A stretch of DNA of 64,000 nucleotides, from the NCBI GenBank assembly GCA_036265105.1, contig DATAPR010000055.1, positions 42,229 to 106,228 on the forward strand, read 5' to 3'. This DNA is from Sphingomicrobium sp. (GTDB taxonomy: Bacteria; Pseudomonadota; Alphaproteobacteria; Sphingomonadales; Sphingomonadaceae). This document shows, one piece after another, positions 12,202 to 29,139 of the stretch. The notes below the pieces were generated by a model. The model ran no database searches. It was given only the letters and a program-made list of their open reading frames with translations, and was not told the DNA's origin. The stretch's first letter is position 1. Every line of letters begins with the position of its first letter. The translations under genes were made by a program, and so were the position numbers.

Positions 12202-12208
12202 ATCAGTT

Positions 12209-13318
12209 TCATGAGGTCACGGGCCCTTGAGGCAGCTGCGCCAACTCCACCAGGCGGCGCGCCATCGCGGACCAGTCGTAGCGACGCAGCGCATAGCGGG
12301 CCATCTCAGCTCGGTCCGTCTCGGAAAGTTCGATGCTGTCGATTGCGTCGGAGCAGCGCTTGGCAGATTCGCTCGGCTCCGAAAGATCGATCGTGACGCC
12401 ACGGAGCCATCGCGCGGCGTCGGGATCGGCCCGGTTGCTTGGAGCGCCGCAAACAACCGGCAAGCCGCAAGCCATCGCCTCTTGTATGACTAGCGGATAG
12501 CCTTCTCCGACACTTGGAAGGAGAAGCACATCAGTCGAGCGATAAAGCTTTGCGAGATGGGATTGGTCGAGCACGCCTAGGTCACGGACGTTCGCCAAAC
12601 CCCAATCCGCCGGGCGAATGGGCCCACTCCCCACAAGAAGGAAACTTAGGTCTGCCCGCAATGCAGCGAGCGCGCGCAGCACAGTCAAGCCCTTTTTCTC
12701 TACGTACCGTCCCACAAAAAGTATTTGGCGGGCGCTCGAGCTGAGGGTCTTGGGATCCTCGCTTCGGAAGAAGATCGAGCCGTTGACACCATTGAACAGC
12801 AACTCGCTTGATCGGCCGTAATGTCCGAGCAGGTCTTTGCGAACCGTGTCGCTGACGAACACACGAACATCCGCCGCGCCTAACATTGGTCGAGTAATGA
12901 GTCCGTTCGCGATGCTCATAATCCTGCGCATGATCCGGGAGGCGAAAGGAATCCCAGCAATATGCTGGATAAGGATGGCACGTTTGCCCGTCGCCTTCGC
13001 AATGAGCATCGCCAGTACGGAAGTTGCGTAGAGCGCGTCGTGAATCACGACAGCGTCGCTTCGCCGCACCTCACGCGCGAGCGCACAAATACCGCGGAAG
13101 CCCGGAATCGGCATCGGCAAGCCCGTGAGTTTTTCGGTAGGATTGATGCAAGACAACGGCACCACTTCAATCTCGCCGCCGGGAGGGGGATCGGAATTGC
13201 TGGCAGCCCAAACGGCGATCGCTCCAAGGCGGCCGAACTGACGGTTCAGTTCGCCGGCTACGCGCTCGATGCCGCCGCCGTGACTTTCAAAGAAATGGCT
13301 AATCGTCAGGATGCGCAA
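12209..13318 (-). CDS. Glycosyltransferase family 4
   Basis: 'HGGGIERV', 'LFVGRYVEKKG', 'LPSVGEGYPLVIQEAMACGLPVV'. Confidence 0.92.
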   Translation of the reverse strand: MRILTISHFFESHGGGIERVAGELNRQFGRLGAIAVWAASNSDPPPGGEIEVVPLSCINPTEKLTGLPMPIPGFRGICALAREVRRSDAVVIHDALYATSVLAMLIAKATGKRAILIQHIAGIPFASRIMRRIMSIANGLITRPMLGAADVRVFVSDTVRKDLLGHYGRSSELLFNGVNGSIFFRSEDPKTLSSSARQILFVGRYVEKKGLTVLRALAALRADLSFLLVGSGPIRPADWGLANVRDLGVLDQSHLAKLYRSTDVLLLPSVGEGYPLVIQEAMACGLPVVCGAPSNRADPDAARWLRGVTIDLSEPSESAKRCSDAIDSIELSETDRAEMARYALRRYDWSAMARRLVELAQLPQGPVTS

Positions 13319-13327
13319 GTCGATACT

Positions 13328-13993
13328 TTAGGAAGGCTCGAAACGCATTGTCACTTCGAGTGAATTCGGGAAAAGCATCGCAAATGCTCCGGTACGATAT
13401 GGAAACTGTTCAGACCGTGCCGCAATTCGATAGCCGCTCTCCTTCGCGAGCAGTTCCCACTCGGCCCGGCTGAGATAGTGAGCCCGCACCATGCCGCCGA
13501 ATGGTATGTTGCCGATCGCGTCGAGCGTTGCGAGACGAAGATCGTCAAGCTTTCCACGAGTTTCATGATCCTTGATGTACAGCGGTCCATCTACCGCACG
13601 TCGAATCTCGCGCAGCAGTCCGGAGCGAGCGTCAGCGGGAACATGGTGAATCACATTGTTGATCGTCGCGGCATTGAAACTGCCGTCGCTGAAGGGAAGT
13701 TTTCGCCCGTCGTATTGTTGAGTCTGCACGCTTAGGGACGGACAGAAACGATCCACGACGTCCACGACTTGCACCTCGGCTACCGGAAACAACTCCGAGA
13801 TCGCCTCGGCAATCACGCCTGTCCCCCCCCCCACGTCCAGCAACTTCTGAGCATGGCCAAGCCAGACCTGGCGCAGGCTGCTGAGCAATAGCGTCTGATA
13901 CGTAGGCACCTTCTTTCGGTACATCGAAAGGTGGGCTCCGAGGATTCGTTGAACCGAGTTGAGATCGATTGAAGGCTTCGGGACGGTCATCAT
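13328..13993 (-). CDS. Class I SAM-dependent methyltransferase
   Basis: 'LLDVGGGTG', 'YDGRKLPFSDGSFN', 'VIHH'; start at 13993 overlaps the GtrA stop (ATGA). Confidence 0.85.
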   Translation of the reverse strand: MMTVPKPSIDLNSVQRILGAHLSMYRKKVPTYQTLLLSSLRQVWLGHAQKLLDVGGGTGVIAEAISELFPVAEVQVVDVVDRFCPSLSVQTQQYDGRKLPFSDGSFNAATINNVIHHVPADARSGLLREIRRAVDGPLYIKDHETRGKLDDLRLATLDAIGNIPFGGMVRAHYLSRAEWELLAKESGYRIAARSEQFPYRTGAFAMLFPNSLEVTMRFEPS

Positions 13994-14382
13994 CGCGGCC
14001 CGGCGGTCTTGGGGTCGGGCGCCGCGACTGCCCAGCGCCCGAGCACGAAATTTGCCACAACCATGCAGACCGATCCCATCGGCGCAGCAAAAAGCATCGG
14101 CAGTCCAACGGCGGCGTACCAGAACCACGTCGTCAAGTATGCGAGCGGGACGTTCGCCGACATGGCCGTCGCATAACGCACAAGCCGCGAAATGGAGAGC
14201 GGTTGTCGGAACGTGAAAATTGCGTGTAGCGCATAGCCGCAGCTCGCGACTGCGGCGAAAGAGATGAGCACCGCCAACCACAACGGAATGCTCATGCCAT
14301 TTGCAGCAACCAAAATGAGGTTGTGCAACACCAGACAAAATCCCGCTACGACGAGGTAGGTGACTGGAGTGCGCGCGGTCAT
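13990..14382 (-). CDS. gtrA: GtrA-family lipid-linked sugar flippase
   Basis: About 130 aa with four hydrophobic helices, 'FTFR', 'RY'; ATGA-coupled to both neighbours. Confidence 0.8.
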   Translation of the reverse strand: MTARTPVTYLVVAGFCLVLHNLILVAANGMSIPLWLAVLISFAAVASCGYALHAIFTFRQPLSISRLVRYATAMSANVPLAYLTTWFWYAAVGLPMLFAAPMGSVCMVVANFVLGRWAVAAPDPKTAGPR

Positions 14383-15020
14383 TTCCGGACTTTTCTTGCA
14401 CGCACTAGGAATACGCACGCATCGTTGTTTCGGATCGCTGCGGGCGTCATCGAATCTTCCAGCATCGCCCGCAAGTTCATTATTCCCGCCAGCACGGATG
14501 CAAACGCTCCTCCTATGAGAGGTACTTTTCGCAACGCGAATGCAAAACCCGTTAGTCTGATGAGAGTGGTAGTCGCTAGTGGGCCCGCAATCGCGTGAAC
14601 GTCTTCAACTACGAACCTTCGGTCGGACAAGTCGGCAATCAGTCCCGTCCGTGTCCATCGGCGGTGATCTTCAGGATGCGGGTGGTAAAGCCACGTTCCA
14701 TGAGTGGATAGGAGCAGCACCCCGTCGTCCGAAAGGAGCCGATGCATCTCCGAGCAATACGCATCAAGGTCGCGAACGTGTTCGAGCACCTGAATTGACA
14801 GTACCGCAGCCGCCGATCCGTCCGGAAGAGGAACGCGTCCTTGAGCGTCGATCTTCAATGACGCTCCATCATCGATGTCTGCGCCGCGGTAGTCGATTTG
14901 CATCTCATTGAGCATGTCCGCGTAGGGCATCTCACCACAGCCGAGGTCGACCGTTAATGCCTCGGGAGGGATGTGAGCGCTGACTTCGCGTTGCAACAGC
15001 CGGGCGAGCTGTCGCAACAC
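14379..15020 (-). CDS. Class I SAM-dependent methyltransferase (start uncertain, frame open further upstream)
   Basis: 'VDLGCGEMPY', 'VLEHV', 'LSTHGTWLYHPHPED'. Confidence 0.85.
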   Translation of the reverse strand: MLRQLARLLQREVSAHIPPEALTVDLGCGEMPYADMLNEMQIDYRGADIDDGASLKIDAQGRVPLPDGSAAAVLSIQVLEHVRDLDAYCSEMHRLLSDDGVLLLSTHGTWLYHPHPEDHRRWTRTGLIADLSDRRFVVEDVHAIAGPLATTTLIRLTGFAFALRKVPLIGGAFASVLAGIMNLRAMLEDSMTPAAIRNNDACVFLVRARKVRK

Positions 15021-15084
15021 AAGCCAGTCCGTGTCCCAAATGCGAGGTTTAGCGCGACTTCTCCTCAGAGCAGCACCAGGTCGC

Positions 15085-16305
15085 TCAAAAGCCGTGCCGC
15101 TCGTCGAGATTGTCGAGCAGCAGCTTCATTACGAATCCCGACATGACCATCATTACACCCGCGACGCAGCCCGTCGTGACCGCGAAAACGAGGTGCACCG
15201 ATTGCTCCATCGGACCGCCGACGAAAATCCACTTGAACGCTAGCAGCGCATCCGCGCTCAAGGCCGCGGCGGTCAGTAATCCCCCGAGGCCAACCAGCCA
15301 TTCAAGCGGTCGGCCGCGCTTGAGCCAGGGAACGATCCGGCTGGCGCCGGTCGGCTGATAGATGGCGATCGCTACCTTCGCCAGCGCTCCGAGAAGAATT
15401 GCGCAGAGGCCAATCAGGGTCGCCATTGACGACAGAGCTACGAAGTGAATTCCGAAATAGAAGTCCCCGATCTTCATCGGGCCGTCAGCGAGCGCTGCGA
15501 GCCCGAACATCCCTGCAACTAATAGAACGAGCCCTGGGATTAGGTACACAGTATCGGGCGCATAGGCGATGATTAGCCTGAGGTGCCGCCAACCGTCTCG
15601 AAACGATCGCAGGTGCGGCGGTCGGTCGCGTTTGTCGGGGTAAAGCCTGATCGGCACCTCGCGGATGTCGAGCCCGGCGCGCTGGGCGTTGATCACCATT
15701 TCGGACGCGAACTCCATTCCCGGCGAACGCGCTCCCATCTTCTGGTAGGCGTCGCGAGTGAAGCCTCGCATCCCGCAATGGAAGTCGCGGATCGACGAGC
15801 GGTGAAGCCAGCGGGCGACCGCAGACAAGACCGGGTTGCCAACATAACGATGCAGTAGCGGCATCGCGCCCGCCTCTATCCCGCCCGCGAACCGGTTCCC
15901 CATCACCAGATCGGCCCCGTCCTCGAGTGCGTCGATGAAGCCGTCGAGCTCGCTCCAGTCGTAGCTGTCGTCGGCGTCAGCCATGATAAGGTATTTTCCG
16001 CGCGCTGACGTTGCGGCGACCGTAATTGCGGCTCCGTACCCCTTTATTGGCTGGTGAACGACTCGGGCGCCGATCGACTCGGCTATCTCTACCGACTTGT
16101 CGGTGGAACCATTGTCGCCGACGACGACCTCGCCGGCGATGCCGCGTGCAGCGAACGCCGCGAACGCCTTTCGAATACAAATGCCAAGCGTCCGCTCTTC
16201 ATTGAGGCAAGGAATAATTGCCGAAACGAGCGGCGCGGCCGTGCCTTGCGCGAGCGTAACGTTCGAACGAGGGGACATCGTAGTTAGACTCAATCTGCCC
16301 TCCAT
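15085..16305 (-). CDS. GT2 polyprenol-phosphate glycosyltransferase (DPM1-like) with C-terminal TM helices
   Basis: 'IIPCLNEE', 'DNGSTD', 'KGYG', 'DADDSYD', 'GNRF', 'DFHCGMRG', 'MEFASE'; ATG 16305 after AGGGG. The longer ORF to 16953 is not credible. Confidence 0.88.
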   Translation of the reverse strand: MEGRLSLTTMSPRSNVTLAQGTAAPLVSAIIPCLNEERTLGICIRKAFAAFAARGIAGEVVVGDNGSTDKSVEIAESIGARVVHQPIKGYGAAITVAATSARGKYLIMADADDSYDWSELDGFIDALEDGADLVMGNRFAGGIEAGAMPLLHRYVGNPVLSAVARWLHRSSIRDFHCGMRGFTRDAYQKMGARSPGMEFASEMVINAQRAGLDIREVPIRLYPDKRDRPPHLRSFRDGWRHLRLIIAYAPDTVYLIPGLVLLVAGMFGLAALADGPMKIGDFYFGIHFVALSSMATLIGLCAILLGALAKVAIAIYQPTGASRIVPWLKRGRPLEWLVGLGGLLTAAALSADALLAFKWIFVGGPMEQSVHLVFAVTTGCVAGVMMVMSGFVMKLLLDNLDERHGF

Positions 16306-16546
16306 ATGTCCCCTAATCCGCCCGACATCCCTTAACTGGAGAGCCGATCCGGGCGCCAAACGAATTCTTGCTCGAATGCCGATGAATGGCAAGACGAAGG
16401 TCATTTCAAGCACTTGGGACGCCTTGTCCGTTTTCGGGACGATAACTTTGGCGGAGTGCGCCTTCCAATAATCCCTTGACCTTACCCCGTCATAGGCGTG
16501 AAAATGGTGGTGGAACCGAGCCGAAGCCTTTGGGGGGCAACCGGCA

Positions 16547-17575
16547 ATGCAGCCATTTCCGGCCAATTTTCTCGAGAGCATGGACGCGCGTCCGGCGCGC
16601 CGGCGTGCTCTCGTCACGGCGGCGGTCGCCGCTTCCGCAATCTTCGCCATTACTGCGGCAATCGCTCTGCCTTCGGCGGCCCGCCCAAGCGTGGCCCGAG
16701 CAACGGCGCCGCCACCATCGTCCCGCAAGCCGCAATATCTGAGCAACGTCGAACGGCCTCGGGCCGTGGCGGCAGCCATCAACTCAGAATCGAGCCAGCG
16801 CCGCTTCACGGGCCGTGTAGGCCAGGACTTGTCGCGCTCGCTCATCGCCGCTGGGGTGCCGGAGCGCCAAGGCCGCGAATATGTAGCTCTGCTGGGGAAA
16901 GCGATCCAGCTTTCAGACGGTCTTAGCGTCGACGACAAGTTCGATCTCGTCATCCGGCGGAATTCCGACGGTAGCCTCGGCCAGCTGCTCTACGCGGGCA
17001 TGGACCGTATCGCCCGCGCCGACGTCGAGCTGATGAAATGGACTGACGGCAAGCACGTCATTTGGGTTAACGCCGATGGCGCCGGCGGTGGCGCTGGAGG
17101 TAGCCAGGAAATCCGAATGCCAGTGCAGGGACGCCTCACCTCTGGCTTTGGCGAGCGGTTCCATCCGATCCTCGGGTACGAAAGGTTCCATGCAGGGGTC
17201 GACCTCGGCGCGGTGGCGGGGACACCGATTGTCGCGGCGGCGGACGGCAATGTGGTGAGCGCGGGCTGGGCCGGGGGCTACGGCCGCGCGGTCGCGATCG
17301 CGCATGCGGGCGGGATCGAGACCAAGTACGGGCACATGAGCCGCATTTCAGCCTACTCGGGCGAGATCGTGCGTCGCGGGGAGGTGATCGGATATGTCGG
17401 ATCGAGCGGGCTGTCGACTGGGCCGCACCTGCATTTCGAAGTGATGAAAAACGGGCGGCCGGTGAATCCGTTATCAGTGAAGTCGATCGCTGACGGGCCG
17501 GGCCAACTTGAGGGCGCCAAGCTCGCCGCCTTCCGGAACGAACTAAGGAGTCTGCTCGTGGCGAGCGCGAGATAG
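16547..17575 (+). CDS. M23 family peptidoglycan endopeptidase
   Basis: N-terminal TM anchor; 'HAGVD' (HxxxD), 'YGHMS', 'STGPHLHFEV'. Confidence 0.9.
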   Translation: MQPFPANFLESMDARPARRRALVTAAVAASAIFAITAAIALPSAARPSVARATAPPPSSRKPQYLSNVERPRAVAAAINSESSQRRFTGRVGQDLSRSLIAAGVPERQGREYVALLGKAIQLSDGLSVDDKFDLVIRRNSDGSLGQLLYAGMDRIARADVELMKWTDGKHVIWVNADGAGGGAGGSQEIRMPVQGRLTSGFGERFHPILGYERFHAGVDLGAVAGTPIVAAADGNVVSAGWAGGYGRAVAIAHAGGIETKYGHMSRISAYSGEIVRRGEVIGYVGSSGLSTGPHLHFEVMKNGRPVNPLSVKSIADGPGQLEGAKLAAFRNELRSLLVASAR

Positions 17576-17579: not shown

Positions 17580-18566
17580 ATGACGTTCGAAGCCGACATT
17601 CGTCACGCGGCGGCGGGCTTGTGTCTGCCGAACCCTGTTCTTTCGATCGTAGTTCCGGTGAGGGATGAAGAAGACGCAATCCCAGTTTTCATCGACCGGG
17701 TCGTAAGCGTCGTCACGGCTTTGAACGACGCCGCTGCAGCGAGCTTCGAGATTCTGTTCATCGACGATGGCAGCGCCGATGGATCGCTCGACCTTTTGCG
17801 GAGCGCCAACGCCGTTGACGGGCGCATCCGGGTCCTGTCTTTTTCTCGCAATTTTGGAAAAGAGGCGGCACTCACCGCGGGACTCGACCATGCGCGCGGC
17901 GACGCCGTCGTGCCAATGGACGCGGACCTTCAGGACCCCCCTGAAGTGCTCGGCGCCATGATCGCAAAATGGCGGGAAGGTTTCGAAATCGTCGACGCAA
18001 TTCGGTCGAACCGAGAGGCGGACAGCGCTGGGAAACGGATCACCGCGCACCTTTTTTACAGGGCGCACAACCGTCTGAGCACCGACAAGATCCCCGAAAA
18101 TGCGGGAGATTTCCGCTTGCTCGACCGCAAAGTGGTGGACGTGATCCGGGCAATGCCCGAGCGTAGCCGCTTCATGAAGGGCCTGTTCGCGTGGCCGGGT
18201 TTTCGCCAGGCTGCCGTCACTTATGCTCGACAACCGAGACAGGTCGGAACCACGAAATTCGGTTATTGGAAACTGTGGACGTTCGCACTCGACGGGATCA
18301 CCGCGACTTCCACGCTGCCCCTGCGGGTATGGAGCTACGTTGGGGTATCGATTGCGGCGCTCGCTCTTGCCTATGCGTCTTTCATCGTCGCGAGGACGCT
18401 GATCTTCGGCATCGACGTACCGGGCTATGCATCGTTGATAGTCGCAATTCTGTTCTTGGGGGGGCTGCAATTGCTCTCACTAGGCATAATCGGGGAATAT
18501 ATTGGCCGCATCCTGGTCGAAACAAAACAGCGCCCGCTCTACGTTGTGCGCGAGCAAATCGGCTGA
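17580..18566 (+). CDS. gtrB: GT2 bactoprenol glycosyltransferase (GtrB/YfdH-like)
   Basis: 'FIDDGSADGS', 'FSRNFGKEAALTAGLD', 'DADLQDPP', 'GDFRLLDR', 'RFMKG', two C-terminal TM helices, 'GEYIGR...KQRPLY'. Confidence 0.9.
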   Translation: MTFEADIRHAAAGLCLPNPVLSIVVPVRDEEDAIPVFIDRVVSVVTALNDAAAASFEILFIDDGSADGSLDLLRSANAVDGRIRVLSFSRNFGKEAALTAGLDHARGDAVVPMDADLQDPPEVLGAMIAKWREGFEIVDAIRSNREADSAGKRITAHLFYRAHNRLSTDKIPENAGDFRLLDRKVVDVIRAMPERSRFMKGLFAWPGFRQAAVTYARQPRQVGTTKFGYWKLWTFALDGITATSTLPLRVWSYVGVSIAALALAYASFIVARTLIFGIDVPGYASLIVAILFLGGLQLLSLGIIGEYIGRILVETKQRPLYVVREQIG

Positions 18567-18668: not shown

Positions 18669-19658
18669 ATGAAGAGCTGGGCCGTTCCCGCGGCGATTAT
18701 CGTCGCGGTTGAGTATTTGTTTGCTCTGCTAATCGGGGCGAGGGTGGGTTTCCACTATCGAATTCCTTTCGTCGCCTACGCAATCATCGGAACCACCATA
18801 GCGGCGGCCGGAGTGGTGGTTTTCATTCTAGGCCGGTTAATTCGATATGCTGCGGGCAGGGAGCGCCGGCCCGCGCGACGGCTGATGGCGGAGCTGCCAA
18901 AATGCCTTCCGTTCCTCGCAGGCACGCTGCTCGTCTCGCTCGAAATCGGAGTGCTCACCTGGACGAAAATCATGCTGCCGATCGCCGTTCCTTTCTGGGC
19001 GGATCCCTTCCTCGCCGACTTCGATCATGGGATCTTTCACGCGGAGCCTTGGAGGATCGCGCATGACCTTTTCGGCTGGGCGGACCCCTTAGTTGATCGC
19101 GCCTATATCACATGGGCGCCTATTAAGTTCGGGACCCTAATAGTCGTCCTCGCAATGCCGGAATCCGCGGTGAAGGCGCGCGCACTGGTTGCTTATTTCG
19201 CGATGATGGCGATGGCCACGATGGGACAGTATCTGCTCTCGTCGGGCGGTCCCGTTTTCTATGCGCAGCTTGGGTTCGGGGATCGCTTTGCGAGTCTTCC
19301 AATCGAGCAATGGGTTGAAAGTACGACTCAATATCTCTGGAGAAATTATGAGCGCGCGGGCGGCGACATCGGCGGTGGAATCTCTGCAATGCCTTCTCTG
19401 CATGTGGCTGTTGCGCTTTGGGTTGCACTCGTCACACGGTCCTATTGGCCGCGACTTGCGGTTGCCGGTTTCTTCTATTTCGCACTGATTGTGGTCGGGT
19501 CGGTGCTCCTTGGATGGCACTACGCAGTCGACGGGATCGTGGGTGTCGCGATCACTCTGGTTGCCTGGCGCGTCGCCGCCGTGCCGACGCGCGAGCGAGC
19601 GACTGAGCCTGGATCGCTTCCACTCGATGCGATTCCGACTTCGACTCCAAAGAACTGA
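18669..19658 (+). CDS. PAP2-superfamily integral membrane enzyme, Aur1/IPC-synthase-like (copy 1)
   Basis: 'GPVFY', 'GISAMPSLHVA', 'LGWHYAVD' (His/His/Asp triad). Confidence 0.8.
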   Translation: MKSWAVPAAIIVAVEYLFALLIGARVGFHYRIPFVAYAIIGTTIAAAGVVVFILGRLIRYAAGRERRPARRLMAELPKCLPFLAGTLLVSLEIGVLTWTKIMLPIAVPFWADPFLADFDHGIFHAEPWRIAHDLFGWADPLVDRAYITWAPIKFGTLIVVLAMPESAVKARALVAYFAMMAMATMGQYLLSSGGPVFYAQLGFGDRFASLPIEQWVESTTQYLWRNYERAGGDIGGGISAMPSLHVAVALWVALVTRSYWPRLAVAGFFYFALIVVGSVLLGWHYAVDGIVGVAITLVAWRVAAVPTRERATEPGSLPLDAIPTSTPKN

Positions 19659-20739
19659 CGCGCGCAATTCTGGCCACGCACAGAATCGCCGCGATCGGGA
19701 CCGTGTTGGGCCCCACATAAAGGTGGAAATAAAACAAGACGGCCGGGAGGCAGGCGACCCACACGAGCAGGGCGAAGCGGCGCTCGCCTCGGCGCAGCAA
19801 CCACGCGAAGGGAACGATTAGCAGCAGCGCGTCGTAAGTGAAGAGGTACGGCGGGACCAGGATGGTCGCGGCGGCAAGCACCGCCCCTCGCGCTTCCCAA
19901 TTTGAGCTCCACGCGCGCCATGTCACGATTGCTGCGGCACCGGCGGCGATCAGCTGCATCACGAAAGCGAGCCTCTGCGCCATTCCGAAAAATCGGCAGA
20001 AGGCGAAGACGCTGGCCATCTCCGTCCACGGCCAGCTGCCCTGCAGTACGAAGTGGCCGAACTCGGTCATCATCCGTGCCCACGCCAGATAAGAATCCGA
20101 TCCGAAGGCGACGAGACCCGCGAGCAATAGCAGAGTCGACGAGAGCGCCGCTCCTGTGAACGGCCGCCACGCCCGCGCAGCTACCAGAGCGACCGGGATC
20201 AGCGGTGCGAGTTGGGGCTTCAGCACGAAGCAGCCAAATAGCATGCCGCCAACGAACGGCCGTTCCTGCAGCGCCTCCAGAGCCCAGGCGAAGATGCCAG
20301 TGAACAGAAACCCGTTCTGCCCGACCAACGCATTCGGAAAGACCGGCGGCAAGACGATCGAGGTCGGCAGCGGCGCGCGTCTGCGCGTCGCCACGAGATA
20401 GAATGCGCCCGTGACTATCTGCCATGCTGCGAATGCGAACCGAAAGCTGAACAGGCCGAAGGGGGTCACGAGCAGCAAGAAAGGCGGCGGATAGGCGAAT
20501 GGCATCAGGCCGGGGAGATGGACGAACGTCAGTTCCGTCGCCCGGTGCGCCTGAAGGTCATAGGCGAGGACGGCTTTGTGATCGATCGCGAGCCGACCAG
20601 CAGCCCAGAAGCTGACGAAGTCGATACCTGGCGTCGTGACGAAGCTGCGCCACGCGGCATAAACCGCCGTCACGACAGCGATTCCACCGATCGACCAGGC
20701 GAGCACCCACCCCCAGCGAATGATCCGATCATTCGTCAT
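19552..20739 (-). CDS. GT87/DUF2029-family polyprenol-dependent glycosyltransferase
   Basis: 'DFVSFWAAG', 'FAYPP', 'GQNG', 'LKPQL', 'YD'; multiple TM helices. Confidence 0.85.
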   Translation of the reverse strand: MTNDRIIRWGWVLAWSIGGIAVVTAVYAAWRSFVTTPGIDFVSFWAAGRLAIDHKAVLAYDLQAHRATELTFVHLPGLMPFAYPPPFLLLVTPFGLFSFRFAFAAWQIVTGAFYLVATRRRAPLPTSIVLPPVFPNALVGQNGFLFTGIFAWALEALQERPFVGGMLFGCFVLKPQLAPLIPVALVAARAWRPFTGAALSSTLLLLAGLVAFGSDSYLAWARMMTEFGHFVLQGSWPWTEMASVFAFCRFFGMAQRLAFVMQLIAAGAAAIVTWRAWSSNWEARGAVLAAATILVPPYLFTYDALLLIVPFAWLLRRGERRFALLVWVACLPAVLFYFHLYVGPNTVPIAAILCVARIARVSSLESKSESHRVEAIQAQSLARASARRRRARQPE

Positions 20740-20819
20740 CTGGCTGTGGTGTCTCTCAATGGGAGCATCATGTCATTGGCCCGATTGGACGATTTGTCGG
20801 CCCGTGGTACCACCGGCGG

Positions 20820-21833
20820 GTGGGGGAGAGGCTTAACACCGAGCGCGGGTGGGCGGTACCGGGCGTATTGCTGACGCTCGCGTCGGCGGCATTCGCACTC
20901 GTCGAGATCCCGGATCGTTCGGGAATTGTTCCCGCACTTCTGTTGCTTCCAATGTGGATGGTCGCTGCTGGAGCAATGGCCTGTGTCATAGTGCTGATCG
21001 CAACCGTGCGTATGATGCTGCGCGGAGCCGATCATCCAGTCGGTTATTGGCTCGGGTTCATCGTAGAACATCGCGCGCGGCTGCTGTTCGTGACGGTGTG
21101 CATGGTCTTGACCGGCCTCAATATGATCACATTTATGTGGATTAAGCCGCTCCTCAATTATCTCGTGCCGTTCTGGGCTGACCCTTATCTTGCCTCGATC
21201 GACCGGGCAATTTTTGGCATTGATCCCTGGCGGCTGTTCGGCTGGCTCAACAACTATCCGATGGCGATCTTCTATCACCGCGCATGGTTCGCGCTGATGA
21301 TCCTCACGCTCCTGACGGTGCTATGGCGCCCGGCTTCAGCCGAGAAGAGCGCAGTTATGCTAACCTATTTCGTTCTCTGGTCGATCTTTGGACCCGCAGT
21401 TCACACACTTATGCCGGCAGCTGGGCCGGTTTTTTACGCGAGGCTCGGATACGGCAACGCTTTCTCGGGCCTCGTATCCGCGCGGGAGACGCGGCAGCTC
21501 GCAGACTATCTCTGGCGGACTTACTCTGGAGCGCGGTTCGGCCCCGCGGCTGGAATTTCGGCGATGCCGTCACTGCATATCGCGACGACCGTTTGGATGG
21601 TCATCGCAGTCGCAATCTTCGAACGCCGCTGGCTCGTCGCCATGATCCCTGCGGCCGCACTGATCTTCGTGCTCTCCATTTCGCTCGGGTGGCATTATGC
21701 GATCGACGGATTCGTCGGGGGGGCCGGAGCCGTTCTAATCTGGTACGTCCTACACGTCTTCATGACGCGCGCGTCCCCTTACAGCGATGGCAAAGGAGTT
21801 GCTGCCCTCGCAGACGAAAGTATACGGGCCTAG
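20820..21833 (+). CDS. PAP2-superfamily integral membrane enzyme, Aur1/IPC-synthase-like (copy 2)
   Basis: 'PFWADP', 'AAGPVFY', 'GISAMPSLHIA', 'LGWHYAID'. Confidence 0.8.
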   Translation: MGERLNTERGWAVPGVLLTLASAAFALVEIPDRSGIVPALLLLPMWMVAAGAMACVIVLIATVRMMLRGADHPVGYWLGFIVEHRARLLFVTVCMVLTGLNMITFMWIKPLLNYLVPFWADPYLASIDRAIFGIDPWRLFGWLNNYPMAIFYHRAWFALMILTLLTVLWRPASAEKSAVMLTYFVLWSIFGPAVHTLMPAAGPVFYARLGYGNAFSGLVSARETRQLADYLWRTYSGARFGPAAGISAMPSLHIATTVWMVIAVAIFERRWLVAMIPAAALIFVLSISLGWHYAIDGFVGGAGAVLIWYVLHVFMTRASPYSDGKGVAALADESIRA

Positions 21834-21917: not shown

Positions 21918-22688
21918 ATGTTATATCAATTGAGTAACCGGATGAGCTCGAGATCGGCGGCGTTGCTGCTGACGATCGATACGCATCTCGACGCCATCCT
22001 CAAATATTGGTTGCTTGTTGCCGGACTCGCATCGGCGGCTCGGATAGCGCTGGCGCCAAATACGGAGCCCGTTGCCAATGTTTCGACCTTCGCTTCTTAC
22101 TTCCTGCTGGTGGTGGCACCGTTCGCGTCGACTTTTCTCGCGTTGCGCTGGTTTGCCGATGGGCACCGCCAGCCACAGCCTGCGACCCGGCTCGCTCGCG
22201 TCGGCCGATGGCGTGTCGTAAACCGCGCCGAGGCCGAAAAGCATCGGCTGTACGGTCCCCGTGGGATCATGGTGTCGCTGATCATCGGCATGATGATCAA
22301 CGTGCCTGTGCGCGCCGCCGAATATTTCGCTGCAATGCCGCCGATCCCGATCGATGCGCCGCGTTGGCTGTCTGCCCTTCATTTCGCAATGACCTTCGAT
22401 GTCGTCGTGTTCACGAGCCTCTACATGGTTGCGTTTGTCGCCGCGCTTCGCCGCGTGCCGCTGTTTCCCCGGCTGCTGGTTGCTATCTGGCTTGCGGACC
22501 TCGCCATGCAGCTCCTGACCGCCCAGATGGTCGGTACAACTCACGTGCCAGCGAACGTCGCGGTCGCGCTCCAGCACCTGCTGGTCGGCAACGTAAAGAA
22601 AGTGCTGATCAGTATGACGCTATGGCTGCCGTACTTGCTCCTTTCCACGCGCGTCAACGTCACTTACCGGCATCGCATTCCCGCGTAG
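21918..22688 (+). CDS. DUF2569-like membrane protein
   Basis: Multi-TM ORF ending 'W-x-PYLLLSTRVNVT', which I associate with DUF2569. Confidence 0.6.
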   Translation: MLYQLSNRMSSRSAALLLTIDTHLDAILKYWLLVAGLASAARIALAPNTEPVANVSTFASYFLLVVAPFASTFLALRWFADGHRQPQPATRLARVGRWRVVNRAEAEKHRLYGPRGIMVSLIIGMMINVPVRAAEYFAAMPPIPIDAPRWLSALHFAMTFDVVVFTSLYMVAFVAALRRVPLFPRLLVAIWLADLAMQLLTAQMVGTTHVPANVAVALQHLLVGNVKKVLISMTLWLPYLLLSTRVNVTYRHRIPA

Positions 22689-22924: not shown

Positions 22925-23097
22925 TGAGTCGCAGCCCATGAGCAGCTGAGCGCTCGGGGGGCAATTGTCGCGAGCCTAATTTTACTCGGTTCCACCGGGT
23001 TCGCGGCGCGAATTCAGCGTCAACTTCCTCCGATTCACGCGCAGCCTGAAATCCGTGCCCACGGGGGGGCATGGGTGCATGTGGAAGGAATAAGACA

Positions 23098-23277
23098 ATG
23101 AAGACCTTCATTCGTATGCTCAAGGACGAGTCCGGCGCTTCGGCGGCGGAATACGCCCTCATTCTCGCGATCGTCGGTTCGGCGATTGCGCTTGCAGCGA
23201 TTACGCTCGGCCACACCATTGGCAATGCCATGAACTCGGCCAGCACCTGCATCAGCTCGAAGGGCACGAACTGCTAA
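23098..23277 (+). CDS. flp: Flp/type IVc pilin 1
   Basis: 'DESG|ASAAEY' prepilin cleavage and Flp motif, hydrophobic helix. Confidence 0.92.
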   Translation: MKTFIRMLKDESGASAAEYALILAIVGSAIALAAITLGHTIGNAMNSASTCISSKGTNC

Positions 23278-23321
23278 GCTGACTAATTGCTGTTTGCGAA
23301 ATGACGCAGAAAGGGATTTCG

Positions 23322-23504
23322 ATGGGAATTCTCATCAAGATGCTGAAGGACCGATCCGGTGCTTCGGCCGCCGAGTATGCGTTAATTCTCGCGATCGTCG
23401 GTTCCGCTATTGCGCTCGCAGCCTTCACGCTCGGGCGAACTATCGGGAACGCGATCAACAGCACAGACGCTTGCATCAGCAGCAAGGGAGGCTCTTGCAG
23501 CTGA
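23322..23504 (+). CDS. flp: Flp/type IVc pilin 2
   Basis: 'DRSG|ASAAEY', paralogue of pilin 1. Confidence 0.92.
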   Translation: MGILIKMLKDRSGASAAEYALILAIVGSAIALAAFTLGRTIGNAINSTDACISSKGGSCS

Positions 23505-23628: not shown

Positions 23629-24549
23629 ATGATGTCACGTCAAACAATGATCGCACTGACTGGCGCGATCGTTTTGGGACTTATCGCGGTGTTCATCGCG
23701 AACTCGTATCTGAACGGCGCGCAGAAGCGTGCCTATGCGGGCGCGACGACGAAGGTCGCGGTCGCGAGCGCGCCGATGGCCTACGGAACCGTCATAACAC
23801 CTGACAAGGTGCGCTTTGCTGACTTTCCGAACTCAAGCATCCCGCCTGGGGCGTTTACCAACGAACAGCAGCTGCTGCCCGCCGGAAAGAAGCGCGTCGC
23901 GCTGATGGAGATCGGTGTCAACGAACCGATCCTGAAGGACAAGATATCGGGCGAAGGTGAGGGCGCATCGATCTCCGCGCTTCTTCCTGACGGAATGCGC
24001 GCGGCTACCGTTCGCATCAACGATGTTTCAGGCGTCGCGGGCTTCATCCAGCCAAACGATCATGTCGACGTTCTGATCACGCGCGACCTCGAAGGTGGCA
24101 ACGCCACTCAGGCAACGGATGTGCTGCTTCAGAACATTCGGGTCATGGCGATCGGCCAGCAGGCAAAGGACGCCAACGGAAAACCAATTTCAGCTCGAAC
24201 AGCAACTTTGGAGGTTGCGCCGATCGATGCACAAAAACTCGCGCTTGGCGAGGCGGCGGGCAGCTTGAGCCTCGTGCTCCGCAAGCCCGGCGAGCCGAGC
24301 AATCCAGTTGTCGAGACCGTCAGTCTCAATGACCTTCGCTACAACATGTACGGCGGTGCGCGCTATCCGGCGCCCGCGGTGGTCGGAAGCCTCGGCACGC
24401 CAGCGGTTCCTGCCGCGGCGCCAAGGCCAGTTCACCGCGTGGGTGTGATCAAAATTAGGCCCGTGCCGCCGGCCGACTTTGGCAAGCAGATCGAAGTGTA
24501 CCGCGGAACGAAGAGCGACCAGGTGAAGGTGGGGGAAAATGGGCGCTAA
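23629..24549 (+). CDS. cpaB: Flp pilus assembly protein CpaB/RcpC
   Basis: SAF-like region; 'GMRAATVRINDVSGVAGFIQPNDHVDVL', 'LLQNIRVMAIGQ'. Confidence 0.92.
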   Translation: MMSRQTMIALTGAIVLGLIAVFIANSYLNGAQKRAYAGATTKVAVASAPMAYGTVITPDKVRFADFPNSSIPPGAFTNEQQLLPAGKKRVALMEIGVNEPILKDKISGEGEGASISALLPDGMRAATVRINDVSGVAGFIQPNDHVDVLITRDLEGGNATQATDVLLQNIRVMAIGQQAKDANGKPISARTATLEVAPIDAQKLALGEAAGSLSLVLRKPGEPSNPVVETVSLNDLRYNMYGGARYPAPAVVGSLGTPAVPAAAPRPVHRVGVIKIRPVPPADFGKQIEVYRGTKSDQVKVGENGR

Positions 24550-26044
24550 GAAGCTGAAACGCTTTACGCTTTGCGCGGCGGCAGTCGGGGCGCTGCTCGC
24601 CGCGCATCCTGCGCTCGCGCAGGTCAGCGTGGCGACGAACATAAGTGCGGGCGAACTCGATGTTCCCGTGAACAAGAGCCAAGTGGTCCGCGTCGACCGC
24701 GCCTACTCCAAGGCGCTCATTGGCAATCCGGACATTGCCGATATCGTGCCGATCAGCGAGACTTCGGTTTACGTTCTTGGAAAGAAGACTGGCACAACCA
24801 GCCTGACGCTTTACGATCGTGCCAATCGTTTGATTGCGGTTGTGGACATTTCCGTTGGTCCCGATGTCACGAGCCTGAAGAGACAGCTAGCGCAGCTACT
24901 TCCGGCCGACGAGATCTCGGCGACGATGTCGAACGATTCGGTCGTGCTCCAGGGGATGGTGCCTAATGCAGTCGATGCCGATCGGGCTGTCCAGATCGCC
25001 GATACGTTCGCACCTGGCAAGGTCGTGAACCTGCTATCCTTGGGGTCAGCCCAACAAGTGATGCTGGACGTCCGCTTCGCCGAGGTGAAGCGCACGGCTC
25101 TTGCTCAGCTCGGGCTCAATTGGAGCGTACTCGGTGACACCGGCAAGCTGCAGGGTAATGTCGGTGATGGCACCAGCACCAGCACGTTTACGGATCCGAC
25201 AACTGGGCAAGTGCTCGGGTCACAAATCCTGCGCGGGAACGTTGCCGGCAGCTTCGCGATCATCTCCCGTACGTTCCGTGCGTTCGGAGCGAACTTCAAC
25301 GTCCAGCTGGATGCGCTCGAAAACAAAGGAGCGATCACGACGCTCGCGGAGCCTACGCTCGTCGCTTTGTCCGGCGAGACGGCGAGCTTCCTCGCTGGCG
25401 GTGAATTCCCAATTCCTGTCTCTCAAGGAAGCAGCGGCACCGCCGGGACGGCGATTACGGTCGAATTCAAGCCGTTCGGGGTAAGTCTTGCATTTACGCC
25501 GACCGTCTTGGCTGACGGTGTTATCAATCTTGTTGTCGAACCTGAGGTGAGCTCAATCGACCCTACTGCTTCGGTCACCATCAACGGCTTGACGATTCCA
25601 GGCCTTCAGACGCGCCGCGCAAAAACGACATTAGAAATCCGCGATGGTGAGAGCTTCGCTATGGCCGGCCTGATCCGCAAGGACTTCCAGGATACAGTTA
25701 AGCAAGTTCCGCTGCTCGGCTCGATACCGATCATTGGCGCGCTGTTCCGTTCCACGGGCTTCCAACACCAGGAGAACGAGCTCGTCATCATCGTCACGCC
25801 GCATTTGGTGCGGCCGGTGCCCGACGGAACCATGAAGTTGCCGACCGATCGCGTTGGGCCGCCAAACGAGGCTGACTTGCTGATCAATGGCCGCACGGAT
25901 ACCGGCGCCCCACCCGCCGCCCGGCCTTTTGTTCAGCCATCGCCATTCCCTCCGCCGCCTCCCCCCCCAACTGGTAGTTCGGGCGGAATGGCGCTCGCAA
26001 AACAGCCTTCGGGTTTCGAAAAGGACTATGGGCATGTCCTCTAA
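24539..26044 (+). CDS. cpaC: Tad secretin CpaC/RcpA
   Basis: 'IGNPDIAD', BON-like domain, 'QVMLDVRFAEV', 'LAEPTLVALSGETASFLAGGEFP', 'ELVIIVTP'. Confidence 0.93.
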   Translation: MGAKKLKRFTLCAAAVGALLAAHPALAQVSVATNISAGELDVPVNKSQVVRVDRAYSKALIGNPDIADIVPISETSVYVLGKKTGTTSLTLYDRANRLIAVVDISVGPDVTSLKRQLAQLLPADEISATMSNDSVVLQGMVPNAVDADRAVQIADTFAPGKVVNLLSLGSAQQVMLDVRFAEVKRTALAQLGLNWSVLGDTGKLQGNVGDGTSTSTFTDPTTGQVLGSQILRGNVAGSFAIISRTFRAFGANFNVQLDALENKGAITTLAEPTLVALSGETASFLAGGEFPIPVSQGSSGTAGTAITVEFKPFGVSLAFTPTVLADGVINLVVEPEVSSIDPTASVTINGLTIPGLQTRRAKTTLEIRDGESFAMAGLIRKDFQDTVKQVPLLGSIPIIGALFRSTGFQHQENELVIIVTPHLVRPVPDGTMKLPTDRVGPPNEADLLINGRTDTGAPPAARPFVQPSPFPPPPPPPTGSSGGMALAKQPSGFEKDYGHVL

Positions 26045-26327
26045 GCAACTCTGGATTGCGGTCGTCGGGTGCGCGGCGCTGGCGGGATGCAATACCGCGC
26101 AGACTCACATTGGGGATGAGGATCCGGGCCTCGGCGAAGCAGTGAAGTATGATGTGGCTATCCAGACCGTAAATCCAGCACCTGTGTACCCGGCGGACTC
26201 AACACAGCCCGGAAGCAATGGCGAGCTCGGAACGAAGGCGGTTGAGCGATACCGAACCGACAAAGTGAAAGCGCCTCAGGCGCAGAATCCCACCCGACCC
26301 GTCACGGGCAGTGGCGGACCCCAATGA
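26028..26327 (+). CDS. Small pilus-associated lipoprotein
   Basis: AAGGA RBS; lipobox 'LAGC'; sits inside the operon. Confidence 0.75.
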   Translation: MGMSSKQLWIAVVGCAALAGCNTAQTHIGDEDPGLGEAVKYDVAIQTVNPAPVYPADSTQPGSNGELGTKAVERYRTDKVKAPQAQNPTRPVTGSGGPQ

Positions 26328-26339
26328 GGATGCTGAGCA

Positions 26340-27977
26340 GTGAAGCACATTGCACGTTCGCTGTGGAGGAATATTGAGGGCGCGGTCGCGCCAACGGTAG
26401 CTCTTTCGCTCACCGCCCTCATCGCCGCGGGCGGCATCGCCTTCGATTACTCGCGCATGGCGACGATGGATACCGAACTGCAAACAGCGGCCGATCAGGC
26501 TGCCCTCGCAGCGGCGGCTCAGCTTGATGGTGGCACGACCGCATGCAAGCGCGCTGTCGCGGCAGCCCAAGGGATGGTCGCGAATCAGACACTGATGGCA
26601 AATGACAATCTCGGTACGTCGGTGACCGTGCCAGATCCTGGTGTCTGCAACGACGACGGGAGCATAACCTTTAGTGCGACTGCGAGCGTACGGTTTTACA
26701 AAGACGTCGACAAGACTCAGCCCGCCGACGATAGCAGCAACGCAAAATTTGTCGAAGTTCAGGTGGCCGACCGACAGGCAAATTATGCTCTGACCCCGAT
26801 CGTGGCCGCGTTCAGATCTGGTGAAATGCATGCGATTGCTTTTGCGGGTCTCAATTCTGCGATCTGCAAAGTGCCGCCTTTGATGATGTGCAATCCCAAC
26901 GAGACCAGTGATCCGGACTTCACGATCGGGAATTACGTCGGCAAAGGCATCCGTCTCGTTTCGAACGATGGCGGAGGTAGTTACGGGCCCGGCAACTTCG
27001 GATTTCTGGACGCGGGAGCGGGAAACGGCGCGTCGACACTTCGGCAACTGCTTGGAAATCTAAACGTACCAGGCAACTGTACGGCAGGTGACGGTGTCAC
27101 CACAGAGCCGGGAAATCTGATCTCGGTCCGCGACGCTCTGAACACTAGATTTGGAGTTTACGACAACGGACTTAATCAGGCCTGCGGCAGCGGCGATGGT
27201 CAGTGTCCTCCTTCTGCGAACATTCGCAAGGACCTGCTGCTCAGGGGCAACGGCGCCAATCTAAACAAGTTGGGCTTCATCACCGGCAATGGCGGCAACG
27301 GCTGGGTTGAAGCATCCAACCCGTATCCCGGGGCTACAAACATCACTGCGGGCGGCGCGTATCACAGTTTGAGCGACACGGAGATCAGCGCGATATCGCC
27401 GATGGGCTACCCGGAGGATGAGTGTCATTCATTCACATCGGGTGGCACCGGAATTTGCACCAACGGCCGCATTGGGGACGGCAATTGGGACCGTTACGCA
27501 TACTTCAAATCGAATTCACAAAACTATAGCGTTACTTCGGCGAATATCAGCACGTTCCTGACCAGCACTTTTGGGACGGCGACCCCAACACGATTCCAGG
27601 TCTACCAATATGAAATGAACAACGCCGCGACCCGCTTGAAGTCGCAAGCGAGCGGGTCGCTGAGCTCTATCTCGAATCCGGCACTTCTCACACTTGAGCC
27701 CGGTGGAATTTCTCCAAGCTCCACGCAGATCGACCGGCGCGTCCTTACTGTCGCGGTAGTCGACTGCACAGCAGAGGGAGTTAAGGGGCACAGCACGGGC
27801 GTCGGGGTGACGAAATGGGTCGACGTCTTTCTGGTACAGCCTTCGGAGGCGCGAACGACTGGTGTGCGCACCTCAAACAGCGACATCTATGTTGAGATGA
27901 TCGGCCAAACCCAGAACGCTACTGATCAGGGGGCAGTACAGCTCGTCAAGAAGAGCGTGCCGTACTTGATCCAATGA
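26340..27977 (+). CDS. tadG: TadG-like pilus tip/minor pilin protein
   Basis: 'G|AVAPTVAL', 'DYSRMATMDTELQTAADQAALAAA'; Cys/Gly/Asn-rich C-terminal domain. Confidence 0.8.
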   Translation: MKHIARSLWRNIEGAVAPTVALSLTALIAAGGIAFDYSRMATMDTELQTAADQAALAAAAQLDGGTTACKRAVAAAQGMVANQTLMANDNLGTSVTVPDPGVCNDDGSITFSATASVRFYKDVDKTQPADDSSNAKFVEVQVADRQANYALTPIVAAFRSGEMHAIAFAGLNSAICKVPPLMMCNPNETSDPDFTIGNYVGKGIRLVSNDGGGSYGPGNFGFLDAGAGNGASTLRQLLGNLNVPGNCTAGDGVTTEPGNLISVRDALNTRFGVYDNGLNQACGSGDGQCPPSANIRKDLLLRGNGANLNKLGFITGNGGNGWVEASNPYPGATNITAGGAYHSLSDTEISAISPMGYPEDECHSFTSGGTGICTNGRIGDGNWDRYAYFKSNSQNYSVTSANISTFLTSTFGTATPTRFQVYQYEMNNAATRLKSQASGSLSSISNPALLTLEPGGISPSSTQIDRRVLTVAVVDCTAEGVKGHSTGVGVTKWVDVFLVQPSEARTTGVRTSNSDIYVEMIGQTQNATDQGAVQLVKKSVPYLIQ

Positions 27978-28489
27978 TTAGTCTGCTTCCCTCCCTCGCG
28001 AGGAACCGAGGCGGTTCCGCTGCAGTCGAGTTGGCGCTCGTAATACCCTTCCTTCTCACGCTCATGCTCGGCGCCGTCGATTTGGGAAATTATTTCCTGT
28101 CCGAGCATGTCGTCGACAAGGCAGTTCGCGATTCCGCACGGTACGCAGCCCGCCTTCCCTTCGTAGATTTTGACTGTGATTCCGGAACAATGACTGATCC
28201 ATCCACCGTGCAGAAGTTGGCCCGCACTGGCGATCCGGCTGGAACCGTGGCCCGTTTAGCTGGATGGACGAGCGACGGGATGACTTCTGTGACCGTCAGC
28301 TGCGACACGGACACGTCGCACATATACGTAAACAATGGAATTTACGCAGATTTTCCAAACGGGGGCGAAGCGCCTACCGTCACAGTCTCTGCGACGGTCC
28401 CCTACAATTCTCTCTTTGGTTCCATAGGGCTCGGCCGGGTGACGCTGAACCTGTACGCCCAGAGCCAGGCCGCGGTGATCGGCTCATGA
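27974..28489 (+). CDS. tadE: TadE-like pseudopilin
   Basis: 'G|SAAVELALVIPFLL', 'AVRDSARYAA'. Confidence 0.85.
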   Translation: MISLLPSLARNRGGSAAVELALVIPFLLTLMLGAVDLGNYFLSEHVVDKAVRDSARYAARLPFVDFDCDSGTMTDPSTVQKLARTGDPAGTVARLAGWTSDGMTSVTVSCDTDTSHIYVNNGIYADFPNGGEAPTVTVSATVPYNSLFGSIGLGRVTLNLYAQSQAAVIGS

Positions 28490-29130
28490 GAGTGATGCTT
28501 TACATTCTTCTTCGAAATCAGCGGGCAGCGGTCGGCGCCGAGTTTGCGCTCGTTTTGCCGCTTCTGCTGATTCTTCTTTTCGGTGTTATCGACGGTGGCC
28601 GTTTCCTCTGGGAGTGCAACGAAGCCGAGAAAGCCACACAAATGGGCGTCCGATACGCGGTAGTGACCGATCCAGTTGCATCTGCTTTGAAGGGGCCGGC
28701 GGACGGGGGCTACAGTTTCTCTGTCAGTGACGGAATTACCCAGGGAACAGTGGTTCCGACCGCGAATTTCGACAATGCTTCTTGCAACAATAGCACATGT
28801 TCTTGCGCGCCGAGCGGCGGAGGGATTTGTGGTGCGATTGGATACGACACGACCGAGTTCAACCGCATCGCCACCCGGATGGCGGCGATGTACGCGCCTA
28901 TCCAAGCCTCCAATGTTCAGGTGGTCTACAAGAACGTAGGCCTCGGATTTGCGGGGGATCCCGACAATCCGAATGTGTCCACTCTTGTGACAGTCAAATT
29001 AACGGGACTGACTTTTCAGCCACTTACGTGTCTGGTGTTCGCTTGCTCCATTTCGATGCCCGATTTCGCGGCTTCGCTGACGCTCGAGGACGCGTCGGAC
29101 AATGGTCAGAGCCCGCCAATAGCCAATTAA
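28486..29130 (+). CDS. TadE/TadF-like pseudopilin
   Basis: 'AAVGAEFALVLPLL', 'KATQMGVRYAVV'; ATGA-coupled start at 28486. Confidence 0.82.
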   Translation: MRVMLYILLRNQRAAVGAEFALVLPLLLILLFGVIDGGRFLWECNEAEKATQMGVRYAVVTDPVASALKGPADGGYSFSVSDGITQGTVVPTANFDNASCNNSTCSCAPSGGGICGAIGYDTTEFNRIATRMAAMYAPIQASNVQVVYKNVGLGFAGDPDNPNVSTLVTVKLTGLTFQPLTCLVFACSISMPDFAASLTLEDASDNGQSPPIAN

Positions 29131-29139
29131 GGAAACATC

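Follow-up and report, generated by a model that had tools for sequence, protein, structure and literature searches.

Aur1-like and GT-C membrane enzymes in a variable cassette at the head of a Tad pilus operon in Sphingomicrobium

The 64,000-nucleotide stretch of contig DATAPR010000055.1 from Sphingomicrobium sp. analysed here (the window) contains two paralogous genes for PAP2-type membrane proteins of the PAP2_3 family (copies 1 and 2), between which a gene for a GT87 glycosyltransferase lies on the opposite strand. These three genes are part of a variable cassette of membrane enzymes, predicted to face the periplasm, which heads a Tad (Flp) pilus operon: the flp pilin genes are found 1.2 kb downstream of the cassette enzymes, and the Tad operon adjoins the cassette. 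In comparisons covering more than 100 loci, a Flp pilin gene or a Tad locus was the only neighbour to be widely conserved with both the PAP2_3 and the GT87 families, and the two families are candidates for enzymes that decorate Tad pili. Judging from gene content and gene context, we rate as about even the chance that the whole block from approximately 10.5 to 22.7 kb is a variable periplasmic cassette modifying the Flp pilin, or another component of the Tad pilus, with sugars and phospho-headgroups.

A preliminary description of this locus had placed the three open reading frames (ORFs) correctly (table 1), and its observations of PSLH and HY-x-x-D motifs in both PAP2-type proteins and of a 107-bp overlap between the 3' ends of copy 1 and the antisense GT87 gene (19552–19658) could be confirmed, with the motif residues read directly in copy 1 and through the BLAST register in copy 2. 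It also recognized the enzyme classes. The pathway and the partner that it proposed, however, were wrong or are unproven, and it missed the strongest signal, i.e. the flp genes downstream.

Flp pilin genes and Tad loci as neighbours

Gene neighbourhoods were compared in 80 PAP2_3-related loci from named genomes and in an independent sample of 401 genomes drawn evenly from the class, 21 of which carry the PAP2_3 subfamily. Unbiased clustering of every ORF lying no more than 5 kb from a PAP2_3 gene gave an M23 peptidase, CpaB, CpaC and a DUF2569-like protein as the top clusters, and no sphingolipid gene was recurrent. About 30 of the 80 loci have Tad genes at a distance of up to 8 kb. Among them are three from Vibrio, two from Magnetovibrio (directly after tadC) and others from Algiphilus, Kiloniellaceae, Dongiaceae and Mesorhizobium, and these Tad-linked loci are scattered over the PAP2_3 family tree. 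The class sample gave Tad linkage in 8 of 18 informative loci, representing 7 families, and one sampled genome has two PAP2_3 copies beside two different tad loci.

The linkage concerns the pilin gene as such. Of 103 loci, 26 have an ORF with the Flp motif no farther than 1.5 kb away, as compared with an expected 0.83%, which is the share of the window's own genome within 1.5 kb of such an ORF (binomial probability 7e-31, or approximately 1e-16 when just some 12 lineages are counted). The distance to flp is only about 100–670 bp in 14 of these 26 loci, the closest orthologues of copy 1 sit beside an orphan flp gene amid housekeeping genes, and gene calls made by third parties, which carry the Pfam label Flp_Fap, agree with this pairing. 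RcpC/CpaB is encoded by 19 of the 21 carriers versus 183 of the 401 sampled genomes (base rate 46–48%) and by all 16 carriers with a completeness of 90% or more, the two carriers without it being 71%- and 82%-complete metagenome-assembled genomes (MAGs); presence in nearly all carriers is what would be expected if the enzyme serves Tad pili. In the GT87 clade, a Flp gene lies within approximately 3 kb in five of five long contigs, and two of these GT87 genes are just 36–56 bp from an orphan flp. No publication connecting PAP2 enzymes with Tad or Flp was found in a literature search.

The host genome itself has eight flp genes, which fall into two classes. Six encode standard pilins (GATAIEYGLIA...TTFNNVSNNLN) and are orphans or lie near a second Tad locus on contig C41; the cassette accompanies neither that locus nor any of these six genes. 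The other two (23071–23504 in the window) encode GASAAEYALIL pilins with Ser/Thr-rich Cys-x7-Cys tails and are found only beside the cassette, and this pilin class also occurs beside the cassette in other sphingomonad loci. Further contigs of the genome with flp genes are C24, C34, C36, C47 and C62.

Two additional genes frame the cassette. The M23 peptidase gene is its conserved upstream boundary in about 20 sphingomonad loci, and the peptidase may open the peptidoglycan for the pilus. The DUF2569-like protein is always encoded between the enzyme cassette and flp, i.e. in at least 15 sphingomonad loci and additionally in loci L110, L111 and L113 and on the P0237 contig, and is probably an unrecognized Tad accessory protein. 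That it might be a disulfide-forming enzyme for the Cys-loop pilins was considered and rejected, since its sequence contains no cysteines.

What lies between these boundaries is variable. In the preliminary description, the PAP2_3 and GT87 genes had been taken as a module making glycosylated phosphosphingolipids, for which comparison of loci provides no support. GT87 is found near PAP2_3 in about 3 of the 80 related loci, all three from close sphingomonads, and adjoins it in none of the 21 loci of the class sample. A sister metagenomic contig reproduces the gene order of the window exactly (M23, PAP2_3, antisense gene, PAP2_3, DUF2569-like, flp, flp, rcpC), with an antisense gene for a 469-aa polytopic protein which, by profile comparison, is unrelated to GT87, and the 120 best GT87 relatives include no fusion to a PAP2 domain. 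A fixed PAP2_3–GT87–PAP2_3 module was therefore rejected. Sphingomonads have changing mixes of GT87, PMT_2 and PAP2_3 genes at the position between M23 and DUF2569-like/flp, and tandem PAP2_3 genes are common (about 23 of 81 loci). As a side observation, the polytopic protein of the antisense slot (468–469 aa; L113:6005–7414 on the minus and L114:1765–3171 on the plus strand) has an N-terminal 'DGD' loop and no Pfam match.

Table 1. Positions of the cassette genes, their neighbours in the window, and members of the unk600 family elsewhere (see below)
Feature	Position	Strand	Basis
PMT_2/DUF7055/7056 GT-C	10543–12201	-	upstream glycosylation block
GT4	12209–13318	-	upstream glycosylation block
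Methyltransferase	13328–13900	-	upstream glycosylation block
GtrA	13990–14418	-	upstream glycosylation block
Second methyltransferase	14379–15020	-	upstream glycosylation block
AglJ/DPM-like GT2	15085–~16260	-	upstream glycosylation block
Upstream glycosylation block, the six genes above	10543–16260	-	
M23 peptidase (LytM-type), upstream cassette boundary in sphingomonads	16547–17575	+	Pfam, locus comparison
GT2 polyprenyl-phosphate-sugar synthase (ArnC/PgfS/GtrB-like)	17580–18566	+	Pfam, NCBIfam
PAP2_3 copy 1, Aur1/LPT-type membrane enzyme with 8 predicted transmembrane helices, 329 aa	18669–19658	+	Pfam, alignments, AF2 model, PDB profile and fold matches, topology
GT87 GT-C glycosyltransferase, PimE-like, 395 aa	19552–20739	-	Pfam, alignment, AF2 model, PimE fold match, relatives near flp
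PAP2_3 copy 2, older paralogue, separate clade, 337 aa, same motifs (K109, H253, H292, D296)	20820–21833	+	Pfam, BLAST, alignment, tree
DUF2569-like polytopic protein, 256 aa, between cassette and flp	21918–22688	+	weak DUF2569 match, locus comparison
Flp pilin 1 (G/ASAAEY), tail NSASTCISSKGTNC	23071–23277	+	sequence
Flp pilin 2, tail NSTDACISSKGGSCS	23301–23504	+	sequence
Tad/Cpa pilus operon: cpaB, cpaC, tadG, tadE/F, cpaE, cpaF, tadB, tadC, TPR proteins	23629–36627	+	
Prepilin peptidase, end of Tad/Cpa operon	36058–36627	+	
Putative giant adhesin, 2965 aa, repeat-rich, directly after Tad operon and prepilin peptidase gene	37195–46092	+	
unk600 members, other loci	L012:10604–12397; L082:5434–7341; L031:6122–7924		
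unk600 members, own genome, contig C42	L087:5853–7676; L087:11426–13210		

Within the window, the GT2 gene directly upstream of copy 1 starts 4 bp after the M23 gene and ends 102 bp before copy 1; its product scores 280 bits with the PgfS and 173 bits with the ArnC model of NCBIfam, both below the equivalog cut-offs. Together with GtrA and a second, DPM/AglJ-like GT2 from the upstream glycosylation block, this ArnC/PgfS-like enzyme is a candidate supplier of lipid-linked sugars. The ORF of the second GT2 formally spans 15085–16953 on the minus strand (622 aa). Its GT2 domain begins only at residue 244, residues 1–240 are Arg/Ala-rich and overlap other frames, and the ORF is probably over-extended, the true start being likely near 16260. 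The overlap between copy 1 and GT87 was rejected as a functional feature because, in alignments of orthologues, it touches unconserved C-terminal tails only: conservation of GT87 stops near residue 355, and the tail of copy 1 past about residue 305 is variable and modelled with low confidence (low pLDDT). A scan for promoters and terminators gave the same counts as in shuffled sequence and was uninformative. Among sequencing runs, only that of the source metagenome contains the locus, and none is an RNA run.

Family, fold and predicted active sites of the enzymes

Copies 1 and 2 are the only PF14378 (PAP2_3) genes of the 2.72-Mb genome, scoring 92 and 64 bits, respectively (cut-off 27). They share 39% identity over 222 aa (E=1e-42) and fall into separate, well-supported clades of the family tree. 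Copy 1 has the motifs P242-S-L-H245 and H284-Y-A-V-D288, which correspond to PSLH with H253 and to H292-Y-A-I-D296 in copy 2. Searches of the PDB with a single sequence or with a narrow profile yielded no match; only a diverse profile of 90 sequences reached yeast Aur1, which was its best match (E=4e-7, covering the PSLH and HYxxD region; LpxE, E=0.3). NCBIfam holds no model for the PAP2_3 subfamily or for GT87. With an AlphaFold (AF2) model of copy 1 (pLDDT 94.4, pTM 0.90), the nearest solved folds were again Aur1 (9vj4/9ivc; probability 1.0, TM 0.44–0.54), followed by SMSr and then by PgpB and LpxE. Moreover, H245, H284 and D288 of copy 1 align to H255, H294 and D298 of Aur1, a triad essential for that enzyme (PMC13133130).

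Among the 90 sequences, K100, S243 and H245 (the last in motif C2) are invariant, D112 is nearly so, and H284 and D288 (motif C3) are conserved in at least 90%. No arginine is conserved in either the narrow or the 90-sequence alignment: both arginines of the phosphatase motifs (C1, KX6RP; C3, SRX5H) are absent throughout the family, with C1 reduced to a K-x6-[V/S]-P remnant and a serine at the position of the C3 arginine, six residues before H284, and the PF01569 match spans just the C2–C3 part. In established PAP2 enzymology, it is these arginines that bind the phosphate of a phosphomonoester. Their loss would thus fit a phosphodiester substrate, i.e. transfer, better than hydrolysis of a phosphomonoester. 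Helix positions and the distribution of lysine and arginine (positive-inside rule) suggest that copy 1 has eight transmembrane (TM) segments with both termini inside and all conserved motifs periplasmic, so that a periplasmic orientation of the active site is predicted.

Profile match, fold and catalytic triad thus uphold the 'Aur1-like' part of the earlier label 'Aur1/inositol-phosphorylceramide (IPC)-synthase-like', and the assignment of the PAP2_3 copies as Aur1-like in family membership and probable chemistry is supported by alignment and model. Like Aur1 and its Bacteroides homologue BT_1522, they belong to the PAP2_3 Pfam family, have the H-H-D triad in the same register and a (here predicted) exoplasmic active site, and lack the phosphatase arginines. 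Unlike in these systems, structural similarity is limited to a TM score of only about 0.5 and identity to approximately 15–17%, there is neither a Kei1 partner nor an inositol supply, half of the PAP2_3 carriers are devoid of ceramide synthesis, and the genomic partner is a pilin gene rather than lipid genes.

The middle gene product matches PF09594 (GT87) with 95.6 bits (cut-off 25). Its profile found no match among PDB sequences; it was the fold search with an AF2 model (pLDDT 90.9) that identified PimE (9dm5, TM 0.68–0.70) as best hit, followed by the Dol-P-Man enzymes PIG-M, ALG3 and ALG9. Its previous assignment to the GT87 enzymes, which use polyprenyl-P-sugars, is borne out by this model, which makes it a GT-C enzyme with PimE as the nearest solved structure. 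With PimE and other GT87 polyprenyl-P-mannose mannosyltransferases it shares, besides Pfam family and fold, an invariant aspartate in the first periplasmic loop (D40, found in all of 20 sequences) and an adjacent gene for a putative polyprenyl-P-sugar synthase. In contrast to PimE, to which its identity is approximately 16% and whose acceptor is a phosphatidylinositol mannoside, the GT87 enzyme of the window belongs to a proteobacterial, flp-linked clade.

Ceramides, carrier lipids and envelope glycans as alternative targets

Could the PAP2_3 proteins instead be bacterial ceramide phospho-headgroup transferases of the Aur1/SMS type, with GT87 subsequently glycosylating the phosphosphingolipid? 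Their nearest solved relatives, Aur1 and SMSr, would suit this role, as would the lipid-linked acceptors of the solved GT87 relatives. In Bacteroides, the Aur1 homologue BT_1522 is required for phosphoinositol dihydroceramide (PI-DHC), and orphan PI-DHC-like and phosphohexose-DHC lipids with no known synthase occur in Novosphingobium and Sphingomonas (PMC9246714). The host, represented by a 99.7%-complete MAG from a soil metagenome, is a sphingolipid producer, as had been proposed before: it has serine palmitoyltransferase (SPT; 69% identity to the Sphingomonas enzyme) and no LpxC, and is a typical sphingomonad free of lipopolysaccharide (LPS). In addition, the PAP2_3 subfamily is enriched in SPT-positive genomes, which make up 11 of the 21 carriers versus 53 of the 401 sampled genomes (odds ratio 8.9, p=1e-5).

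Several findings, however, make a ceramide pathway quite unlikely. SPT is absent from 10 of the 21 carriers in the class sample, at least seven named carriers have no SPT orthologue, and Vibrio, Magnetovibrio, Mesorhizobium, Algiphilus, Micavibrio and Kiloniellaceae carriers lack SPT and have LpxC. Conversely, the PAP2_3 subfamily is missing from two SPT-positive genomes in the family to which the host belongs. In the host, the SPT gene is on another contig than the cassette, and the conserved neighbour of the latter is flp rather than any sphingolipid gene, with GT87 adjacency not being conserved. The more specific analogy to the fungal sequence of IPC and then mannosylated IPC (MIPC), drawn in the preliminary description, did not hold: inositol-phosphate synthase (PF01658) gave no match in the nearly complete genome, with B. 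thetaiotaomicron positive as a control, such that this route would have no donor and was rejected.

In a second alternative, the PAP2_3 proteins would be lipid phosphate phosphatases acting on undecaprenyl diphosphate released by enzymes of the oligosaccharyltransferase (OST) type, or on another lipid phosphate, and would serve carrier recycling or donor maturation in the manner of Rv3807c. The PAP2/LPT superfamily also includes PgpB, LpxE and Rv3807c, PAP2_3 genes recurrently lie beside genes for GT-C and OST-like membrane proteins, and K100 of the C1 motif is kept. Yet both phosphate-binding arginines are missing family-wide, sequence and fold are nearer to transferases than to phosphatases, and the genome already encodes BacA and a canonical PAP2 protein elsewhere. 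Furthermore, GtrB-type donors release undecaprenyl phosphate, for which no phosphatase is needed (PMC11127046), the locus contains no phosphoribosyl donor enzyme of the UbiA type, and flp–PAP2_3 pairs without any glycosylation gene would go unexplained. Carrier recycling, which had been set aside as the 'mundane' possibility, is thereby weakened, and we regard phosphatase function as improbable.

A third alternative arises from a second recurring PAP2_3 context, which consists of GtrA, an ArnC-like GT2 and a protein of approximately 600 aa, here termed unk600. This protein has 10–12 TM segments and no Pfam match. Its N-terminus carries GDTDD as an invariant motif, its C-terminal domain is weakly similar to that of the AglB oligosaccharyltransferase (E ~0.008), and it is a candidate OST-like GT-C enzyme. 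In Kiloniellaceae and in two other proteobacterial MAGs, the unk600 gene is an immediate neighbour of PAP2_3 and Tad genes. A search of the window found none; contig C42 of the same genome has two copies, with GtrA, GT2 and CFA synthase genes as neighbours. As Tad genes are missing from this context in several genomes, among them the host itself (contig C42), the target could be a glycan or a lipid that is merely co-regulated with the pili. The cassette would then decorate an envelope glycan or glycolipid (an adhesive polysaccharide, the glycan of a glycosphingolipid or another surface polymer) which is used along with Tad pili and the giant adhesin in attachment. Its position between a glycosylation block (GT4, GT2s, GtrA, PMT_2) on one side and the Tad operon with the gene for the 2965-aa adhesin on the other would agree with such a role, and relatives of GT87 act on lipid-linked acceptors. 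What this alternative leaves unexplained is the tight pairing, over 100–670 bp, with an orphan flp among housekeeping genes, where there is neither a glycan gene nor Tad machinery, and we give it only a small chance of being correct.

A possible route to decorated Tad pili

If the cassette acts on the pilus, its components could be arranged into a periplasmic pathway. GT2 enzymes would charge polyprenyl phosphate with a sugar, GtrA would flip the product, and periplasmic transfer of the sugar would fall to GT87 and the other GT-C enzymes. The PAP2_3 enzymes would attack a phosphodiester donor, i.e. a membrane phospholipid (phosphatidylethanolamine, phosphatidylglycerol or phosphatidylcholine) or possibly a polyprenyl-P-sugar, with H284 as the nucleophile; the lipid alcohol would be released from a phospho-His284 intermediate, and the phospho-headgroup passed on to a hydroxyl group of the target. 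The likeliest target would be the Ser/Thr-rich, membrane-proximal C-terminal tail of Flp or a glycan on it. Embedded in the membrane with this tail at the periplasmic interface, the pilin would occupy the place that ceramide takes for Aur1. Two paralogues may then mean two sites or two headgroups. Phospho-decoration of a glycan, a secondary idea of the preliminary description, is compatible with this evidence.

A more far-reaching version, which we put forward tentatively and consider rather unlikely, is that the PAP2_3 subfamily represents the first protein-modifying enzyme with an LPT (Aur1/SMS-type) fold, which would transfer a phospho-headgroup of a lipid (phosphoethanolamine, phosphoglycerol, phosphocholine or a sugar-phosphate) to Ser/Thr residues of Flp in the inner membrane, with flp-linked GT87, PMT_2 and OST-like GT-C enzymes adding or extending sugars. 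This would amount to a widespread, strain-variable and hitherto unrecognized modification system for Tad pili. To our knowledge, no dedicated enzyme modifying Flp pilins has been demonstrated so far.

Precedents from other pili make the general mechanism plausible: the Flp1 pilin of A. actinomycetemcomitans bears both glycosylation and phosphorylcholine (PMC6182317), PptA adds phosphocholine or phosphoethanolamine to Neisseria pilins (PMC10434233), and TfpW of P. aeruginosa is a GT-C enzyme encoded beside pilA (bioRxiv 10.1101/2020.04.19.049825). With PptA, the PAP2_3 enzymes would have in common the transfer of a phospho-headgroup, probably derived from phospholipid, onto pilin serines in the periplasm; PptA, however, has the alkaline-phosphatase/EptA rather than the LPT fold, and its substrate is a type IVa pilin whose gene does not adjoin that of PptA. 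TfpO and TfpW/TfpX of P. aeruginosa are likewise variable, strain-specific enzymes of the GT-C type; their genes adjoin that of the pilin, their sugar donors are lipid-linked, and their variability is paralleled by the shifting cassette content among relatives of our locus. In contrast to these type IVa systems, the pilus here is of the Tad/IVc type, the GT-C families are GT87, PMT_2 and OST-like, and a phosphotransferase is added. Finally, as in three-component GtrA/GtrB/Gtr-type systems, GtrA, a GtrB-like GT2 and GT-C enzymes are all encoded in the 10.5–21.8 kb block; the differences are several GT-C enzymes and two LPT-type enzymes, a link to a pilus operon rather than to O-antigen, and a host without LPS.

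A number of observations weigh against pilus decoration. We know of no LPT-fold enzyme that modifies a protein. About two thirds of the PAP2_3 loci have no flp in the flanks examined, some of which are on short contigs. Enrichment of the subfamily in SPT-positive genomes and the occurrence of the GtrA/GT2/unk600 context without Tad genes, both described above, point elsewhere, as do all solved relatives of GT87 (PimE, PIG-M, ALG3), whose acceptors are lipid-linked and not proteins. In the Tad pilus of Caulobacter, no extra density for modifications was seen (PMC10710030).

The conserved flp–PAP2_3 pair and the flp-linked GT87 provide concrete candidates for the decoration of Flp. In a great many bacteria, Tad/Flp pili drive both adhesion and the formation of biofilms. 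If decoration of these pili by the cassette proves true, Aur1/SMS-type chemistry would no longer be confined to lipids but include a protein substrate, and Tad pili would join type IVa pili among those known to have variable cassettes for pilin decoration. More generally, a bacterial Aur1-like gene in a sphingolipid producer is not automatically a gene for a ceramide enzyme.

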